From: an uncultured bacterium
Lineage (GTDB): Bacteria; Oederibacteriota; PGYV01; CAWJRG01
Length of the DNA: 64,000 nucleotides
NCBI GenBank assembly: GCA_963845185.1
Contig: CAWJRG010000005.1
Coordinates: forward strand, 640,001 to 704,000
Direction of reading: 5' to 3'
Part shown: in pieces, positions 1,749 through 8,400 of the stretch
Layout: every line of letters begins with the position of its first letter
How positions within the stretch are numbered: position 1 is the stretch's first letter
The notes under the pieces: model-generated
Database searches by the model: none
The model's input: only the letters and a program-made list of their open reading frames with translations
Told to the model about the DNA's origin: nothing
Program-made: the position numbers and the translations under genes

Positions 1749-3752
1749 TTATTTTATTACATAGACTTTTAAAAGTTTTTTATCTGCCCCTGCCTCTATA
1801 TACACGAAATACAGCCCTTCTCCCGCAATCTTGCCGTCGCCATTTTTTACATCCCATTGCACCTGGTTCCATCCGTCGGCCGAAGCTGTAAATCCAAGGT
1901 CATTTCTTACTACTTCGCCGGTCAAATTATATACCTTTATTTTTACCTGCACATTTGCCTGGGTTTTCAGGTTTATCTGCAGCTTTTCGCCTTTGTCAGG
2001 GTTTACATAGTTTTTGGAAAGCGTCATGTTTAAGTTGGGCGTAGGAGTATTAGTAACAACCGGTGAAACCACACAAGTGGCCGTAACAACCGGCGTTGCA
2101 GTCGCGGTGTTTCCTGTTCCCTGATTGGTCAGGGTGCTTGTCGCTGTTAAGACAAAAGTTTCCATTGCAATAGCTGTATCCGTAGATGAAGGGACTTCTG
2201 TGCACGTTGAAGTCAGCGTGGGGCTTTCAGTAAGCGTAGGCGTCATTGTCGGCGTATTTGTCCCGGTGTCTATGTATGTAACTATCAATGTTGGAGTGTT
2301 TGTTTGTGTCATGGTAAAAGTATCTGTAATCACCAGCGTGAGCGACGGCGTTGCTGTAAATGAAGGCGTGGGCGTAAATGTAGGCGTGAATGTTGGTGTA
2401 TTTGTCCCGGTATATGTCCTGCTAATTACAAGTGTAGGTGACGGCGTTGCCGTAAATGTTGGCGAAGGCGTCTGCGTCCGTGTGATTGTTGGAGTCGGCG
2501 TTGCATTGGCGATGACAAATGTGAACGCGTATGTATTTGAAGTTCTTGTGTATGTCCCGTTTGTGTCGACTTCAGATGCTGAGGCATTGTCGGTAAATAC
2601 GACCGTACCCACGGAATTAGTTGTGAATACCCATGTAAAATTATAACTGCTGCCTGCCGTAAGTGTTGGAATATACGCAGGCGTTGGTCCTGAATTAATT
2701 GTCACAAGGCTTGAATTTGAGTCTCCCATTCCGCCCGGTACTACATTTGTAGCGTTGACCTGATAACCTGTATTGTTAACTATCAGATTCATAGTTATAA
2801 CCTGGCCCGGAAGCGCCGGGTTTGGATAACCGTCTATTCTTGCTGTTAAAGTCACGCCTTTGACATTCGTGATGCACGGATTGCTCCGCAAAGTAACGCC
2901 TGCAGATTGAATATCCTGTGAAGTAGCAAAAGCCGTATTTGTAATGCTGAACGCCATATTTATGGCTGTAGGGCTGACTAATGTAACTATTGATATGCTG
3001 CCATTTGCATTTGAATTGACTGACCCAATATACCAGTATGCAAATGTGCCTGACGATGTGGTGGATGTAGTAGCATATGGACCAGGGCTTGAGTTTAGGA
3101 ATGTAAGCTCATACGGTATTGTATCCCAGATGTAAACGCTGTTTGCCGGATTTCCCGATGCATTGCTGTAATTAATGGTATATGTAAATGTATCGCCTGC
3201 TTCCATAGGGTTTTCACTGGCTGTCTTTGACATTCCCAAAAGCACTACCGTCACTATTGGGCTGGCTGTAAGCGCCGTGTTTGTTGTGCCTGCAGGCGCT
3301 TCTGAAATACTAAAAGTATATGGGCCTGTGGCAACCGGCACTGTCACACCTTCTGTCCCTCCGCCTGCGCCGTAAACTATGTTCACTGTGTCATACCAGC
3401 TAATATCAAGACCATTGTCTGTGATAGTTATTGTGTTTCCGTTGATACTAATATCATTTGCCGGAACAGTCATTGAATTGCCGCTTGATACTGTATAAAC
3501 CATGACATTCCCAGATGAACCACTGCCATTTGTCGGGGCTGTCCACCCGCTTGGTATCTGGACTGTCAGGTAACCCATGCTTGTCCCGCTGTTTGTCCAA
3601 TTCACGCCGCCTGCATCGGCGTAACTTATTATAAATGTCGCGCCGCTAGAACCCGCGCCGGCGACAGAAGGTGAAATTGTTGCTGTGCCTGTGGCGAAAA
3701 TCGCTGATGTGAATAGTAAAACCGTCGTAAATGCCAGAAAAATTTTTTTCAT
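1749..3752 (-). CDS. Secreted protein: DUF11-like Ig domains, Thr-rich linker, FlgD/T9SS-like C-terminal domain
   Basis: Signal peptide MKKIFLAFTTVLLFTSAIFA; 'SKTAS..GDTFTYTINYSN..VYIWDTIP' (DUF11-like); TPT linker; C-terminus 'KIKVYNLTGEVVR..WDVKNGDGKIAGEGLYFVYI..KVYVIK'. Confidence 0.85.
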   Translation of the reverse strand: MKKIFLAFTTVLLFTSAIFATGTATISPSVAGAGSSGATFIISYADAGGVNWTNSGTSMGYLTVQIPSGWTAPTNGSGSSGNVMVYTVSSGNSMTVPANDISINGNTITITDNGLDISWYDTVNIVYGAGGGTEGVTVPVATGPYTFSISEAPAGTTNTALTASPIVTVVLLGMSKTASENPMEAGDTFTYTINYSNASGNPANSVYIWDTIPYELTFLNSSPGPYATTSTTSSGTFAYWYIGSVNSNANGSISIVTLVSPTAINMAFSITNTAFATSQDIQSAGVTLRSNPCITNVKGVTLTARIDGYPNPALPGQVITMNLIVNNTGYQVNATNVVPGGMGDSNSSLVTINSGPTPAYIPTLTAGSSYNFTWVFTTNSVGTVVFTDNASASEVDTNGTYTRTSNTYAFTFVIANATPTPTITRTQTPSPTFTATPSPTLVISRTYTGTNTPTFTPTFTPTPSFTATPSLTLVITDTFTMTQTNTPTLIVTYIDTGTNTPTMTPTLTESPTLTSTCTEVPSSTDTAIAMETFVLTATSTLTNQGTGNTATATPVVTATCVVSPVVTNTPTPNLNMTLSKNYVNPDKGEKLQINLKTQANVQVKIKVYNLTGEVVRNDLGFTASADGWNQVQWDVKNGDGKIAGEGLYFVYIEAGADKKLLKVYVIK

Positions 3753-4607
3753 ATTTCTTCATCTCCCTTTTTTAATGATGGTGCTATTATATTGTTTTTT
3801 ATGATTCCCATTATTTCCCTGCTGTAACCCGCCTCAATTATCTGTATCCTCTTCATTATCTTGCCTTTGACAACTTCGTATTTTTCTTTCCCAAGCCCGA
3901 TCTTGACGGCTTTTAACCGCAAAAAAAGCAGCCCGGTCATGCCTTCTTCGATTTCAGTCTTAATCCTGACTGTCGGCCCCAGCATTTTAATATTTCTTAC
4001 CAGCCGCTCCATGTCTATCATGCCGTCTTCCCTCAACTTGCCGTCCGAATCCCAGTTTGTGTTCTTGAAAACGAAATTCCCAAACGCGGTTTTTTCCAGG
4101 GTTTTTAAGAGCATTGCCTTTGCCGCCCTTTCGCCGCATGCTACGGTTAATTCGTCCTGTATTATTTTCCTCAGCTCGTCAAACGCGCCTGCAAGCTCGC
4201 TGATATTTTTTTCGTTTTTATAATCTATCTCCGCCGCGAAAGGTTCCTGTTCCAGTTCCTGTGTAGTTTTTGGCGGTGCAGATTCCTGCTCAAGTTGTTG
4301 TTTTATTTTTTCCGCCCTTTTGATAAGGTCGTCTATTTCATAATCATCCTCAGCGCTTTCCTTTTCTTTCCTGCGTTTTTTCTCCGCTAGCCGTGCCCAT
4401 TTCTTCCAGCTTGGACCTGACCACAATGCTTTTCTTTTCAGGTTTGGTTTCTGCGGGTTTGGCTTCAACATTTTTCTGTGTTGCCGGGTTTGCGCTTTCT
4501 TGTTTTGTTTTATCTTCGTTTTCTTTTTCGCCGGTTACCTGCTCTTCAATGCTGAACATGTCCGCCAGGTCCTGGCTTGTAATTGATAAATCCCGTTTTT
4601 TATCCAC
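3749..4607 (-). CDS. Hypothetical protein (~285 aa) split by a +1 frameshift into ORFs 4350..4607 and 3749..4471
   Basis: Removing one C from CCC at 4396-4398 gives a continuous ...RSKLEEMARLAEKKRRKEKESAE.... The exact position within the overlap is uncertain. Stop overlaps the next ATG (ATGA). Confidence 0.7.
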
Positions 4608-4613
4608 GCGTGC

Positions 4614-5003
4614 TCACCTTTTCCTCTGCATTTCTTTGTTTTTTTGTTTGATGAACTCGTCAAGGATGCATCCTTCTATATACCATGCGAGGTAAGGCAC
4701 GAATTTTTCGTTTTCATCCGAGCCCCAGCTTTTTACAGCCTTGATAAGGCCCCTGTTACCTGCCTTTATCAGCTTTACAAAAGATAGCCCTGCTCCCCTG
4801 TACCGGTTGGCTATGCCTATGACCATCCTCAGGTGGGCTTCTATAAGGAACTTTTGAATATCCTCTTTTTCCTCGGCCTGGGAGCCTTCCAGCTTGTTAA
4901 GGAGAATCTCAATTTTGTTAAAAGGCACTTCTTTAATGTGTGATATTACTATGAGATAATCCTTTAAATGGCTTTCGTCTATGTCTATCAATTTTAGCTT
5001 CAT
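4614..5003 (-). CDS. Truncated sigma70-family protein (regions 1.2 and 2 only)
   Basis: 'LKDYLIVISHI' (region 1.2) and 'FLIEAHLRMVIGIANRYRGAGLSFVKLIKAGNRGLIKAVKSW...KFVPYLAWYIEGCI' align by eye to RpoD 'LIEANLRLVVSIAKRYxGRGLxFLDLIQEGNxGLIKAVEKF...KFSTYATWWIRQAI'. Stops at 129 aa. Confidence 0.85.
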   Translation of the reverse strand: MKLKLIDIDESHLKDYLIVISHIKEVPFNKIEILLNKLEGSQAEEKEDIQKFLIEAHLRMVIGIANRYRGAGLSFVKLIKAGNRGLIKAVKSWGSDENEKFVPYLAWYIEGCILDEFIKQKNKEMQRKR

Positions 5004-5188
5004 TGTCCTTTACCTCTCTTTTCCAAATTTTTTATGCTTTCTTCTTCCATCCATTTATTGACCCTGTCAAGGTCAACTAATTTTTCGTTAAAAAAATCCT
5101 GATGCTGTTTTAAAAATTTTCTTAAAGTTGGCAAAGAAATCTGCATGTAATCGGCTGCCTCGCCTTTCTTTACCGCATTTTTAGTCAT
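5000..5188 (-). CDS. Small excisionase/MerR-like helix-turn-helix protein
   Basis: 'KGEAADYMQISLPTLRKFLK...DLDRVNKWME' fits the Xis-like HTH pattern. ATGA overlap with the sigma fragment. Confidence 0.7.
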   Translation of the reverse strand: MTKNAVKKGEAADYMQISLPTLRKFLKQHQDFFNEKLVDLDRVNKWMEEESIKNLEKRGKGQ

Positions 5189-5236
5189 TTCAGCACCTGA
5201 GTTCTTGTCATCTTCATATAATACACTGGTTATAGT

Positions 5237-5252
5237 AGCAATTCCTATGCCG
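5237..5252 (-). promoter_or_regulatory. Putative sigma54 (-24/-12) promoter
   Basis: Minus strand CGGCATAGGAATTGCT: GG-N10-GC spacing, close to the TGGCAC-N5-TTGCW consensus, ~50 bp upstream of the HTH ATG. Confidence 0.7.
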
Positions 5253-5317
5253 GGTTCAGTAGAAAAACAGTGAATATAATAAGGTAGTTTTTGTGATTGT
5301 TTCCCCTTGCGGAATAA

Positions 5318-5356
5318 TAGTGTAGAATTTTCTACACTAATGTAGGATTTACAACA
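5318..5356. promoter_or_regulatory. Tandem palindromic enhancer (UAS)-like sites
   Basis: TAGTGTAGAA-TT-TTCTACACTA (5318-5339) and TGTAGGATTTACAACA (5341-5356). Both fit TGTAG-N6-CWACA and lie 20 bp apart, ~100 and ~120 bp upstream of the inferred start site. Confidence 0.65.
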
Positions 5357-5406: not shown

Positions 5407-8400
5407 TTACTTTACTATGTAAACCTTAAGCAGTTTTTTATCTGTCCCGGCCTCTATGTACACGAAATACAACCCCTGACCGACAATTTTGCCGTCATCA
5501 TTCTTTATGTCCCATTCAACCTGGTTCCATCCGTCAGCCGTGGTTGTGAAATCCATGTTCCTTCTTATTATTTCACCGGTCAGATTATATACCTTCACTT
5601 TTACGTTTACATTTGCCGCGGCTTTCACGTTTATAAGCAGGGTTTCGCCTTTGTTTGGGTTTAGATAGTTTTTGGAAAGCGTCATGTTTGAATTCGGCTC
5701 AGGAGTATTTGTGGGAATCGGTGAGACCGTATAAGTGGGCGTGATGCTTGGCGTCGGGCTTATCGTGCCTGTTTCTGTTATGGTCAAAGTGTTTGTCTGC
5801 GTGTTTGTCGCTGTAAAAGTGGCAGTTTCCGTGCCGGTAACTGAATATGTGACTGTCGGAGTTTCTGTATCTGTCGCCGTGCCCGTTGAGCTTATAGTGA
5901 AGGTCGGCGTATTTGTGAATGAAGAAGTAACCGTGTTGCTTGGAGTCTCCGTGTTCGTGGATGTGCCTGTACAAGTCAGTGTATTCGTTTCTGTTATTGT
6001 GGAACTTGCTGTGAACGTCGGTGTATTTGTGTATGAAGAGGTGGGTGTACCACTTGCCGTCACTGTGCAAGTGCCTGTCCATGTGGGTGTATTTGTCGGT
6101 GTGTCCGTATTTGTACCTGTCCATGTAGGTGTATTTGTCGGTGAATTCGTGTTTGTCCCCGTCCATGTTGGCGTATTTGTCATTGTATCCGTGTATGTCC
6201 CTGTCCATGTAGGTGTATTTGTTGCAGTATCCGTGTTTGTCCCTGTCCATGTTGGCGTATTTGTTGCAGTGTCCGTGTTTGTACCCGTCCATGTTGGCGT
6301 ATTTGTCGGTGTATTTGTCATTGTATTCGTCTTTGTATCTGTCCAAGTCGGCGTATTCGTCGGCGTCCAAGTCGCTGTATTCGTCGGTGTCCACGTTGGC
6401 GTATTTGTAGTTGTCCATGTCAGCGTATTCGTTGGTGTCCATGTCAGCGTATTCGTTGGTGTCCATGTTGGTGTATTCGTCGGTGTCCATGTCGGTGTGT
6501 TTGTTGATGTTGCTGTATTAGTTGGTGTTAATGTAAATGTAGGCGTAATTGTCCAGGTGAAAACTATCTGCGTGAATGTCTGCGTTATGCTTGGCGTCGG
6601 GCTGCTGGTAGGTGTACTCGAAAATGTCGAAGTCATCGTGCTTGTGCCTGTATTCGTTGGTGTCCATGTTTTCGTATTTGTAGGTGTCCCTGTTGGTGTA
6701 TTAGTCGGCGTCCATGTTGATGTAGCCGTTAATGTATATGTGGACGATAGTGTTAATGTATTAGTGTATGTCAATGTCCACGTTGAAGTATTTGTCGGTG
6801 TCCAGGTTGGTGTGTTTGTAGGTGTTCGCGACGAAGTATTTGTCATTGTACTTGTTGGCGTATTTGTCGGCGTCCATGTCGGAGTAGACGTTAACGTATA
6901 TGTGGACGTTAGTGTTAATGTATAAGTTAATGTCGGTGTCCATGTTGAAGTATTTGTTGGTGTACCTGTCCGTGTATTCGTTAGTGTCCATGTCGGAGTA
7001 GACGTTAATGTATATGTGGACGTTAGTGTCAATGTATAAGTTAATGTCGGTGTCCATGTCGAAGTTTTTGTCGGTGTTCCTGTCGGTATATTAGTTGGTG
7101 TCCCTGTTTGCGTTGCCGACGGTGTCCCAGTCTGTGTATTCGTCGGCGTCATCGTTGGTGTTGATGTATATGTCAGTGTCTGCGTATATGTACTGGTTGG
7201 TGTTGATGTAGTTGTGGCAAAAGCGCATGAGCCCGGGCAATATCCTACATATATTTCATATTCCCCCGAATTGCTGCTTGCGGACGGGAACGGGTCCGGA
7301 ATATCGTTAACCGAGCTGTAGTTGGTGTTTTTAAATGCTATATTCTCTCCTGAGTTTGCGCTCGCGAACTGCACGCCGTTATCTCCGAGATACGCGAGCC
7401 AGTATGTACCTGCAGGCAGGCATGTCACAGGAATATTATAAGTGTTCCAACCCGGACCGCATGTTTGCTTGCCTGTACTGGCAAGAAGCGCTCCAGGCAC
7501 TCCGGCATTGTCTGCGTAAATTCCCAGTATCACTCCGGATGACCCGCTTCCCAGGTTGTTAATTGACATTGTGTATCCCCTGCCGTCCTGCGCCAAAGTA
7601 AACTGCGTTGCCATCAGGGTATTTGATGAATTTCCGCCTGACGGCCCTATGGAGTCATCTCCAAAATGTGCGTAAGTACATGGCGGTGTCGGAGTCGGCA
7701 GTCCCGACGGACAGTAAAGCACATATACTGAATACTCTCCGGTATTGGTTGTAGGGCTGTTCGGGAATGTTGCAGGCATTGACCCTGTGGAGCCGAAGTT
7801 CATGTTAACATAAGCCAGATCACTCCCGCTGTTATTTGTCGCTATCTGAGACCCGCTGTCTGCAAGGTATGCCAGCCAGTAAGTGCCCTGCGGCAGGTTT
7901 GTCATTGATATGGGATAAATGCCCCAGCTGTTTGCGCCTATCGCCTGTTTTGCCGTGGCTATTATAAGATTTCCCGGGGTTCCGAGGTTATCACTATAAA
8001 TACCTATCATTATATTACTTGCAGTGCCCTTGTTATACGCCGCGACCTGTATTCCTGTACCTCCGTCAGACATCAGAAATTTTGTTGCCATGAGTGTATT
8101 GGCAGAGTTTCCGCCTGATGAGCCTATTGCATTTAACCCGAGGTAACTGTTGCATACCGTCGAAGTAAATGTCGGAGTTCCTGTCACTGTAAGCGTGATA
8201 ATACTAGTTAACGTTGCTGTTGGCGTAATTGTTATAGTATTTGAAATGGTCGCTGACGGGACCGTGCCCGCACATGTGAAAATAAGCGCGGTAGGCCCCC
8301 TTCCGCACGCCCATGCCAGTGTTGAATATGCCGATATACCAAGCAGCTCGTTTGTCGTGCCGCTTGCCTGCTGGTTCCAGCTGGTACCGCCGTTATTTGT

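Follow-up and report, generated by a model that had tools for sequence, protein, structure and literature searches.

Introduction

Sigma factors are normally multi-domain proteins, and the known exceptions are the split sigmas of phages and mobile elements and the decoy PhyR, which is fused to a receiver domain. We analysed a window of 64,000 nt (contig CAWJRG010000005.1) from the 3.5-Mb genome of an uncultured bacterium, the minus strand of which carries an operon coding for a stand-alone sigma-70 fragment of 129 amino acids, in the following named mini-sigma (5003-4614, minus strand); all operon coordinates are positions of this window. The mini-sigma comprises region 1.2 and region 2 and represents the constant core of the system. 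We favour, at a probability of roughly 40%, that it is a sigma mimic or competitor induced via sigma-54, with a domain that was derived from a housekeeping-type sigma factor and subsequently remodelled.

In principle only, the locus can be likened to the PhyR-NepR-EcfG system of Alphaproteobacteria. There, according to the portion of the literature that we draw on, a sigma-like domain titrates the anti-sigma factor NepR, a process termed 'sigma factor mimicry', and in both cases a sigma-derived domain would serve as a decoy with its output under a two-component pathway. PhyR, however, mimics an extracytoplasmic function (ECF) sigma factor, with both sigma-2 and sigma-4, and has a fused receiver domain that phosphorylation switches, whereas the mini-sigma consists of sigma-2 only, is of group-1-like origin, stands alone and appears to be controlled at the level of transcription by sigma-54. 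As neither a fused receiver domain in the mini-sigma nor a match to a NepR-type anti-sigma family in the operon was found, the protein does not belong to the PhyR type. For the PhyR decoy, residues directed towards DNA and polymerase are not needed, and the mini-sigma, too, is a sigma-like domain in which contacts to DNA and polymerase are degenerate.

A second group of described systems are the split sigmas. The part of a preprint considered here names RsoA-SigO, Tn916 Sig7-Sig8, T4 gp55-gp33 and SPO1 gp33-gp34 (bioRxiv 10.64898/2026.10.01.756105). SigO-RsoA of B. subtilis and Sig7-Sig8 of Tn916, as far as that account covers them, share with our locus a small region-2-type protein encoded beside a small helix-turn-helix (HTH) protein, a pair that might jointly touch the -10 and upstream DNA. 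In these systems the partner carries region 4, whereas the HTH protein found here is HTH_17-like, shows no region 4 match and is missing in 5/16 relatives. RsoA was not among the best 25 NCBIfam rows for the mini-sigma, and, unlike in the split sigmas, the mini-sigma residues at positions 436, 437, 440 and 441 do not appear compatible with DNA binding. T4 gp55 is described, again in a source covered in part, as a sigma-family protein reduced to region 2, functional in the absence of regions 3 and 4, with a small acidic co-factor (with gp33 and the gp45 clamp). The product of the third gene of our operon, P3, may be compared with this co-factor, as its acidic N-terminal peptide ends in IFG and presumably resembles clamp-binding peptides. 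In contrast to gp55, which is a phage protein reading a -10-type late promoter, the mini-sigma is chromosomal, lies beside uvrC in relatives, has no phage family match beyond sigma-2 and is accompanied by a dispensable P3. Closest in sequence and of the same fold is domain 2 of RpoD/SigA, with region 1.2 included and no non-conserved insert; unlike these proteins, the mini-sigma lacks regions 1.1, 3 and 4 and has a family-specific YRGAG loop and an IEG motif. A stand-alone group-1-type sigma-2 family was not found in the literature, where papers on split sigmas and ECF factors appeared instead, although the coverage was partial and absence is therefore unproven. The locus would thus add to the known sigma-fragment and sigma-mimic systems, here from an uncultured phylum: a chromosomal, order-wide family that has only a housekeeping-type sigma-2 domain, in which the DNA-reading residues are charge-reversed, behind an enhancer-dependent promoter.

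A sigma domain 2 without regions 3 and 4

The preliminary description of this DNA, a reading of the bare letters, had announced a sigma fragment without regions 3 and 4, and the database searches agree. Pfam analysis led to Sigma70_r2 as the only match of the mini-sigma (E 1e-9; 38.5 bits compared to a cut-off of 24), with no match to Sigma70 region 3 or 4 at E up to 1 and no second domain. The NCBIfam models for RpoD, RpoH and RpoS matched only over their parts reflecting regions 1.2-2.4, and the protein ends 16 residues past region 2.4. When the PDB was searched with the family profile, the sigma-2 domains of SigA (Thermus, T. aquaticus) were the best matches (E 5e-21). An AlphaFold model with a predicted local distance difference test score (pLDDT) of 86.6 shows the sigma-2 fold at a Foldseek probability of 1.00, and its comparison with S. 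aureus SigA led to a TM of 0.68 and a root-mean-square deviation of 2.4 over 106 columns. With RpoD from the same genome, the mini-sigma shares 41% identity over 70 ungapped residues. PADLOC and PHROGs gave only a generic sigma-2 match (MzaA, phrog_351) and weak HTH rows, with no sign of a defence system or a prophage.

A word-indexed search identified five relatives of 127-134 aa with 56-91% identity. Subsequently, 99 species genomes of the phylum, including that of the window, were covered by a six-frame scan, which revealed 16 genomes with a full-length match, each in a small open frame of 107-143 aa; all 16 belong to the same order, itself represented by 23 other genomes. In the remaining 75 genomes of the phylum no stand-alone mini-sigma was found, and matches reflected region 2 of ordinary sigmas only. 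Carrier relatives are labelled as candidate division FCPU426 or as 'Spirochaetia' metagenome-assembled genomes. An exhaustive hidden Markov model search of 1.84 billion representatives yielded 21 proteins at E up to 1e-30, namely 17 of full length (109-134 aa), three assembly-duplicated ordinary sigmas and P0033, a protein of 386 aa with three tandem sigma-2-like domains.

Two or three such tandem domains without region 4 occur in P0033, P0049 and P0051, all from other metagenomes, and the third domain of P0033 carries the LIKAGNRGL signature of the mini-sigma family.

Missing regions 3 and 4, a neighbouring P3 gene that is frameshifted in this assembly and the absence of the operon from some related genomes might be taken to indicate a functionless, decaying remnant of a full-length sigma gene. 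We regard this as highly improbable because it is contradicted by the conservation data. A full-length sigma does not occur at this place in any relative, and all 16 proteins have 120-134 aa, which excludes a recent truncation. Identities range from 31 to 91% across nine families of the order while certain positions are invariant, and the promoter and the ribosome-binding context are conserved as well. The ratio of nonsynonymous to synonymous substitutions (dN/dS) was 0.04, 0.11 and 0.25 for three mini-sigma pairs, whereas P3 gave values of 0.12 and 0.27 and the HTH gene one of 0.33, all to be read with dS near or past saturation in several pairs. These sequence comparisons support the view that the gene of the sigma-2-only protein is small, old and under selection, and did not arise by a fresh truncation.

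Residues kept and lost

Residues were counted over 35 family rows, among which some proteins occur twice because they were obtained by two routes, and numbered according to E. coli from an ungapped match of profile positions 44-123 to residues 369-448. The scaffold of the domain is kept, with the region 2.1/2.2 helices, the motif LIxAGNxGLIxAV and an invariant N409 (35/35), which is also a contact to the beta-prime subunit. L384, L412 and W433 were each kept in 33/35 rows, Y394 as well as L404 and I405 in 34/35 and F427 in 30/35, and position 430 is Y or F in 28/35.

The residues directed at polymerase and promoter show a different picture. Residues 403, 406, 407 and 409 touch the beta-prime coiled coil, and changes there weaken binding only, while Q437 and T440 read position -12, as stated in the section of the work consulted (PMC8321222). 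In the mini-sigma family, D403 is D in 2/35 rows, Q406 is never Q (0/35; K or R in 19) and E407 is E in 8/35 (A in 20), and canonical core binding is therefore uncertain. R436 and R441 are among the -12/-13 duplex contacts of sigma factors, and Y430 and W433 are melting residues. Among the DNA-facing positions, R436 is replaced by E in 35/35 rows, Q437 by G in 27/35, T440 by a hydrophobic residue (I, L, M or V) in 35/35 and R441 by D, N, S or E in 33/35, mostly by aspartate. K426 is D, N or E in 27/35, and W434 is variable and never W (0/35). By these counts the mini-sigma has lost the residues that read and hold -10/-12 DNA, with all four -12/-13 contacts replaced. A family-specific R is found in place of T395 (35/35), and most members end in a K/R-rich C-terminal tail. 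For the protein of the window, comparison with its own RpoD reveals the changes DLIQEGN to KLIKAGN and STYATWWIRQAI to VPYLAWYIEGCI; the substitutions quoted in the preliminary description (DLIQEG to KLIKAG; STYATWWIRQAI to VPYLAWYIEGCI) were thus correct.

As the DNA-reading residues are replaced, the mini-sigma probably regulates by imitating a sigma factor and not by being one: an acidic duplex-DNA face together with a constrained fold and region 2.2 helix appears mimic-like and unlike that of a promoter reader. The preliminary description had offered a decoy for polymerase or anti-sigma factors beside a two-part sigma of altered specificity, and the residue pattern seems to fit the decoy better than the split sigma. 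A minimal or split sigma, the strongest competing explanation, would bind the core enzyme and start transcription at altered promoters, either alone at -10-like sites, in the manner of T4 gp55, or together with the HTH protein, resulting in a cascade from sigma-54 to the mini-sigma. The retention of W433 (33/35), Y or F at 430 (28/35), F427 (30/35) and the invariant N409 is in line with this, as are the K/R-rich tail of most members, located where region 3.0 would touch DNA, and the known split sigmas mentioned above. E at position 436 in every row and mostly D at position 441, however, should repel duplex DNA at -12/-13, and including the data on the HTH protein given below we consider a minimal or split sigma possible but doubtful.

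A third explanation is that the sigma-2 fold has been repurposed outside RNA polymerase, for instance to assist P3 or the secreted protein as a scaffold or in a chaperone-like manner, or to serve the two-component system as a signalling adaptor that does not involve DNA. The R at T395 and the E at R436, each invariant in the family (35/35) at positions not conserved in true sigmas, would be explained in this way, as would the loss of most canonical beta-prime and DNA contacts. Furthermore, the gene of a secreted protein is predicted to be always co-transcribed with the mini-sigma, and the conserved acidic N-terminal peptide of P3 looks like a docking motif. On the other hand, N409 and the whole pattern of the region 2.2 helix are strongly constrained, P3 is absent or broken in 6/16 relatives, and we know of no precedent for a sigma-2 domain outside transcription, although no search was aimed at one. 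A repurposed fold is therefore rated as unlikely.

A proposed sigma mimic under sigma-54 control

In the proposed mechanism for a sigma mimic or competitor, a kinase would act via an NtrC-type regulator on sigma-54, making the switch one at the level of transcription. Once this pathway fires, the mini-sigma would be made and act by protein-protein competition, either at core RNA polymerase, by occupying its beta-prime clamp helices, or by titrating a binder of sigma domain 2. The set of holoenzymes formed might then shift while the surface protein is produced, and the mini-sigma itself would read no promoter element.

Several points weigh against such a mimic. Of the four residues in contact with beta-prime, three are lost (D403 2/35, Q406 0/35, E407 8/35), and neither the locus nor the surroundings of an RpoS-like sigma gene of the genome revealed an anti-sigma factor or another binder of sigma-2. 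W433, Y430 and the basic C-terminal tail found in most members would suit a DNA-engaging factor too, and the doubly obtained proteins among the 35 rows make the counts overstate independence. The operon is also dispensable: in at least one genome, G083, whose genus includes a carrier, another secreted-protein gene comes directly after the genes of the regulator and the coiled-coil protein described below.

A broader formulation is that a cellular lineage, neither phage nor plasmid, uses a lone sigma domain 2 downstream of sigma-54. The domain would be either a region-4-free minimal sigma for a new kind of promoter, with HTH and P3 as lineage-specific helpers, or a competitor displacing sigma-70-family factors from the core enzyme while sigma-54 transcription goes on. 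We hold this to be doubtful as well, but if true, either case would represent a novel level of competition among sigma factors, coupled to cell-surface remodelling in candidate division FCPU426. A mini-sigma that binds the core would be a natural tool for the effects of the sigma-2/beta-prime contact on holoenzyme formation and sigma competition, as well as a simple and transferable part for polymerase titration, and one that does not bind the core would show that a sigma fold can be turned to a different partner.

The RpoS-like gene is found on another contig (G000 contig C9, 28707-31560; L034:2707-5560) and codes for a second primary-like sigma of 328-350 aa. It follows pcm and a 228-aa gene at the position of nlpD, which is the classical rpoS arrangement and suggests an RpoS-type factor in a candidate phylum.

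Operon and sigma-54 type promoter

From 5' to 3' on the minus strand, the operon consists of two palindromes, a sigma-54 type motif, the genes for the HTH protein, the mini-sigma, P3 and a secreted protein of 667 aa, and a GC-rich hairpin. The HTH gene (5188-5000, minus strand; 62 aa) overlaps the mini-sigma gene by an ATGA at 5003-5000, and P3 (4607-3749, minus strand) starts with GTG at 4607, six bases past the stop codon of the mini-sigma. A second ATGA at 3752-3749 joins the stop of P3 to the open reading frame (ORF) of the secreted protein, the last operon gene (3752-1749, minus strand). The 667-aa protein has DUF11 repeats (Pfam E 2.6e-13), a proline/threonine (PT)-rich linker and a C-terminal domain resembling FlgD_ig and sorting domains of the type IX secretion system. 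The secreted ORF announced in the preliminary description is thus confirmed and extended by the significant DUF11 match, but its C-terminal sorting domain scores slightly under the curated cut-offs (FlgD_ig 24.0 vs 27; Por_Secre_tail 22.8 vs 27). The lengths of the HTH protein (62 aa) and of the sigma fragment (129 aa) and both ATGA overlaps were found as described before. Directly past the last stop codon lies a GC-rich hairpin with a 12-bp stem (1744-1717) as a possible terminator; in the scan its T-rich tail was on the plus strand, and the palindrome folds on the minus strand too, but no T run comes after it there. Except for the broken third gene, the original observation is real and well above chance.

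Upstream of the HTH gene, a -24/-12 promoter of the sigma-54 type, GGCATAGGAATTGCT (GGCAT-N5-TTGCT), is located at 5251-5237 on the minus strand, with a predicted transcription start near 5225. This GG-N10-GC site (cGGCATAGGAATTGCT) fits TGGCAC-N5-TTGCW at 9/11 positions. The motif was detected at the same place, 35-65 nt before the first gene, in 15/15 assessable relatives, L004 being left out due to too little upstream sequence. Counting the window among 16 loci, 15/16 have a motif of at least 9/11, whereas across the genome such sites average 0.032 per 420 nt, and the strict form GGCAY-N5-TTGCW occurs 27 times in the genome (7 Mb, both strands). L036 and L037 also keep the motif. The genome encodes rpoN (Sigma54_DBD match, E 3e-52), and no good sigma-70-like site was found on the same strand between 5188 and 5406 upstream of the HTH gene. 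With the conserved site, rpoN, an enhancer-binding regulator and kinase adjacent to the operon in relatives and no good sigma-70 site, sigma-54 dependence of the operon is well supported as a prediction.

The two TGTAG-N6-CWACA sites, which the preliminary description had placed at enhancer distance from this promoter, are present as well. These palindromes, TGTTGTAAATCCTACA (5356-5341) and TGTAGAAAATTCTACA (5336-5321), both on the minus strand, lie about 70-105 nt upstream of the GG and are kept in L036 and L037. At the same place, other relatives have related palindromes of 16-17 bp or CTGTCAA repeats (CTGTCAA...TGTCAA), such as TGTAAAGAATCTTTACA in L008 and TGTTGAAAATTCAACA in L005. The 16-mer TGTAGAAAATTCTACA has a single copy in the 3.5-Mb genome at 0 mismatches, with no further copy at 0 or 1 mismatch; allowing 2 mismatches adds three sites, and no regulon can therefore be defined from it. 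A second element, TTCCGCA-N5-GAAAC (5299-5314, minus strand), is located downstream of the palindromes and ahead of the -24 box, and similar elements were detected at a similar distance in L002, L007, L008, L012, L013, L014 and L016, with a perfect palindrome, TTTCACATTGTGAAA, in L013. L036 and L037 keep this element too. It is found with or without an HTH gene nearby and is possibly the site of a bending protein or of a second activator. With these elements, a clean, phylogenetically footprinted sigma-54 promoter and its enhancer are available from an uncultured phylum.

L036, a relative with 89% identity, has about 150 nt extra (L036:560-700) ahead of the start codon of the HTH gene and downstream of the -12 box, which the window and L037 do not have.

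HTH protein and P3

The 62-aa protein had been described as Xis-like. Its resemblance to HTH_17 (E 0.028) and excisionase (E 0.0023) was indeed observed, but these matches are weak and below the cut-offs. Among 12 members of the HTH family, 5/12 matched HTH_17 and 0/12 matched Sigma70_r4 at E up to 1, and a PDB profile search with the family led to no sigma factor. The gene is present in 11/16 relatives and absent from L003, L007, L009, L015 and L016; in L003, where the flanks align with L002, its loss reads as a clean deletion.

For a split sigma, the gene order HTH then sigma-2 with an ATGA overlap is suggestive. Yet, the absence of the HTH gene from 5/16 mini-sigma carriers means that there is no obligate co-occurrence, and the family shows no region 4 signal (0/12), being HTH_17-like instead (5/12). 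The proposal that the HTH protein supplies the upstream contact of a two-part sigma is weakened by these results and by the charge-reversed -12-reading residues of the mini-sigma. Another candidate for a partner was the single orphan region-4 protein of the genome, which was rejected because none of the 23 other genomes of the order has an orthologue of it, a further point against a split sigma. This protein of 140 aa (G000 contig C8, 36211-36633; L033:715-1134, minus strand) combines a topoisomerase-type zinc ribbon with Sigma70_r4 (E 5e-14).

The orphan protein has no region 2, and its small contig carries a Cas2-like ORF, repeat-rich sequence and integrase-like and transposase-like ORFs.

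P3 had been described as a hypothetical protein of about 285 aa. As the gene is frameshifted in this assembly, no open 285-aa frame exists; it is divided into frame A (4607-4350, 85 aa), with the conserved N-terminus and the acidic motif ISxEDLxEIFG, and frame B (4471-3749, 240 aa), with the remainder from about 4365 onwards. Both frames align to the single protein of relatives, which has 215-305 aa there and consists of a short acidic N-terminal motif, a disordered linker and an all-helical C-terminal domain of about 155 aa. P3 is intact in the closest relatives, with 290 aa in L035 (mini-sigma 91% identical) and 305 aa in L037 (78%). DNA alignment with L035 revealed that the window has a single additional base in caggaaagaaaagg, around 4370-4361, which may be a real mutation or an assembly error. 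P3 is intact in 10/16 relatives, broken in L012, by an in-frame TAG as well as a frameshift in a run of A8, and in L017, by a frameshift in a run of A5, and absent from L007, L009, L010 and L016.

P3 was thus disrupted independently in three genomes (window, L012 and L017), each time in an A-rich stretch, which suggests either recurrent loss or homopolymer-prone assembly errors.

The P3 family comprises 18 proteins among 5.8 billion, all unnamed. Its C-terminal domain was modelled with a pLDDT above 90 over residues 95-249, but the comparison with known structures led to nothing better than E 0.19 (Foldseek vs PDB) and to a VIA-align wide Z of at most 6.7, a value that counts as noise for helical models. 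Further searches were equally negative, with 0 matches at E up to 10 for a PDB sequence profile, unnamed clusters with a best score of 0.79 in the ESM Atlas, and nothing consistent in Pfam for 10 members; neither a region 3 or 4 match nor a sigma among the fold matches was obtained. A complex prediction of P3 with the mini-sigma from alignments gave a score of 0.00, which, as a run without controls, is uninformative either way.

HTH and P3 would thus far be seen as dispensable modulators.

Conserved gene order and candidate activator

All 16 relatives share one arrangement, in which the promoter is followed by (HTH), mini-sigma, (P3) and a gene with a signal-peptide-like start. Since HTH and P3 are patchy, the mini-sigma is the only constant member, and the trio of HTH, sigma-2 and hypothetical protein put forward in the preliminary description holds for the mini-sigma but not for the HTH gene (missing in 5/16) or P3 (missing in 4 and broken in 2). 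A DUF11 homologue follows the mini-sigma or P3 in 10/16 relatives and in L037, and the other six have different secreted proteins.

A candidate regulator is encoded in the window at 33682-32363 on the minus strand. This NtrC-type response regulator, a bacterial enhancer-binding protein (bEBP) with Sigma54_activat (Pfam E 3e-70), Response_reg and HTH_8, is the probable activator of the operon and presumably binds the palindromes. When the 16 relative loci, each of 3.4 kb, were compared, orthologues of the bEBP (54-69% identity, partial matches) were found directly upstream of the operon in 5/16 (L003, L007, L009, L014 and L016). Wider loci (L024, L025, L028 and L029) have an adjacent histidine kinase and bEBP. 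Upstream genes in the wider loci are uvrC, a HAMP-HisKA-HATPase kinase of 463-470 aa, the NtrC-type regulator of 440-444 aa and a secreted coiled-coil protein of about 240 aa. With the conserved promoter, rpoN in the genome and this activator and kinase upstream in relatives, the preliminary description was right in proposing a sigma-54-driven, translationally coupled operon.

The secreted coiled-coil protein is a conserved neighbour, encoded in the window between the activator and the operon (32311-31583, minus strand; 242 aa) and without a Pfam match. Homologues lie between bEBP and operon in L003, L005, L007, L008, L009, L012, L016 and L037. In G090, both contigs end just past the coiled-coil gene.

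In the genome of the window, the regulator and the coiled-coil gene are 26 kb away from the operon. The uvrC and kinase genes, which adjoin the regulator in relatives, were found about 91 kb beyond it on the same strand (G000 contig C5, 764641-767825). From these distances, the ancestral locus has been pulled apart twice. In L037, no more than two genes, one of 314 aa and one for GH36, separate the coiled-coil gene from the HTH gene, and in L036 the enhancer lies directly 3' of the GH36 stop codon. As GH36 adjoins the enhancer in both, the block of about 24 kb at 5407-29433 (minus strand), with RHS, TPR and giant PT-rich proteins with C-terminal sorting domains, is an insertion specific to the genome of the window, where it parts the operon from GH36 and the activator, and lies outside the system.

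Neighbouring surface-protein genes

A connection of the operon to the expression of giant surface proteins, as suggested in the preliminary description, was not supported. The 2020-aa gene upstream of the operon has its own terminator and a promoter of the sigma-70 type (TTGACT-N17-TATAAT), and it is part of the block of about 24 kb, which the closest relatives lack at the junction of GH36 and the enhancer. No promoter motif shared between the region downstream of the operon and the upstream regions of neighbouring surface-protein genes was seen by eye, without a motif finder, which also argues against a minimal or split sigma. Only the DUF11-type secreted protein within the operon is linked to the system.

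The block itself codes for three giant PT-rich secreted proteins (2020, 1740 and 1295 aa), two RHS-repeat proteins and one TPR protein. The giant proteins show Kelch, DUF5122 and BNR propellers with FlgD_ig/Por_Secre_tail ends, and the threonine/proline repeats of the block result in long spurious ORFs on both strands, for example at 5699-6490 and 5735-6925.

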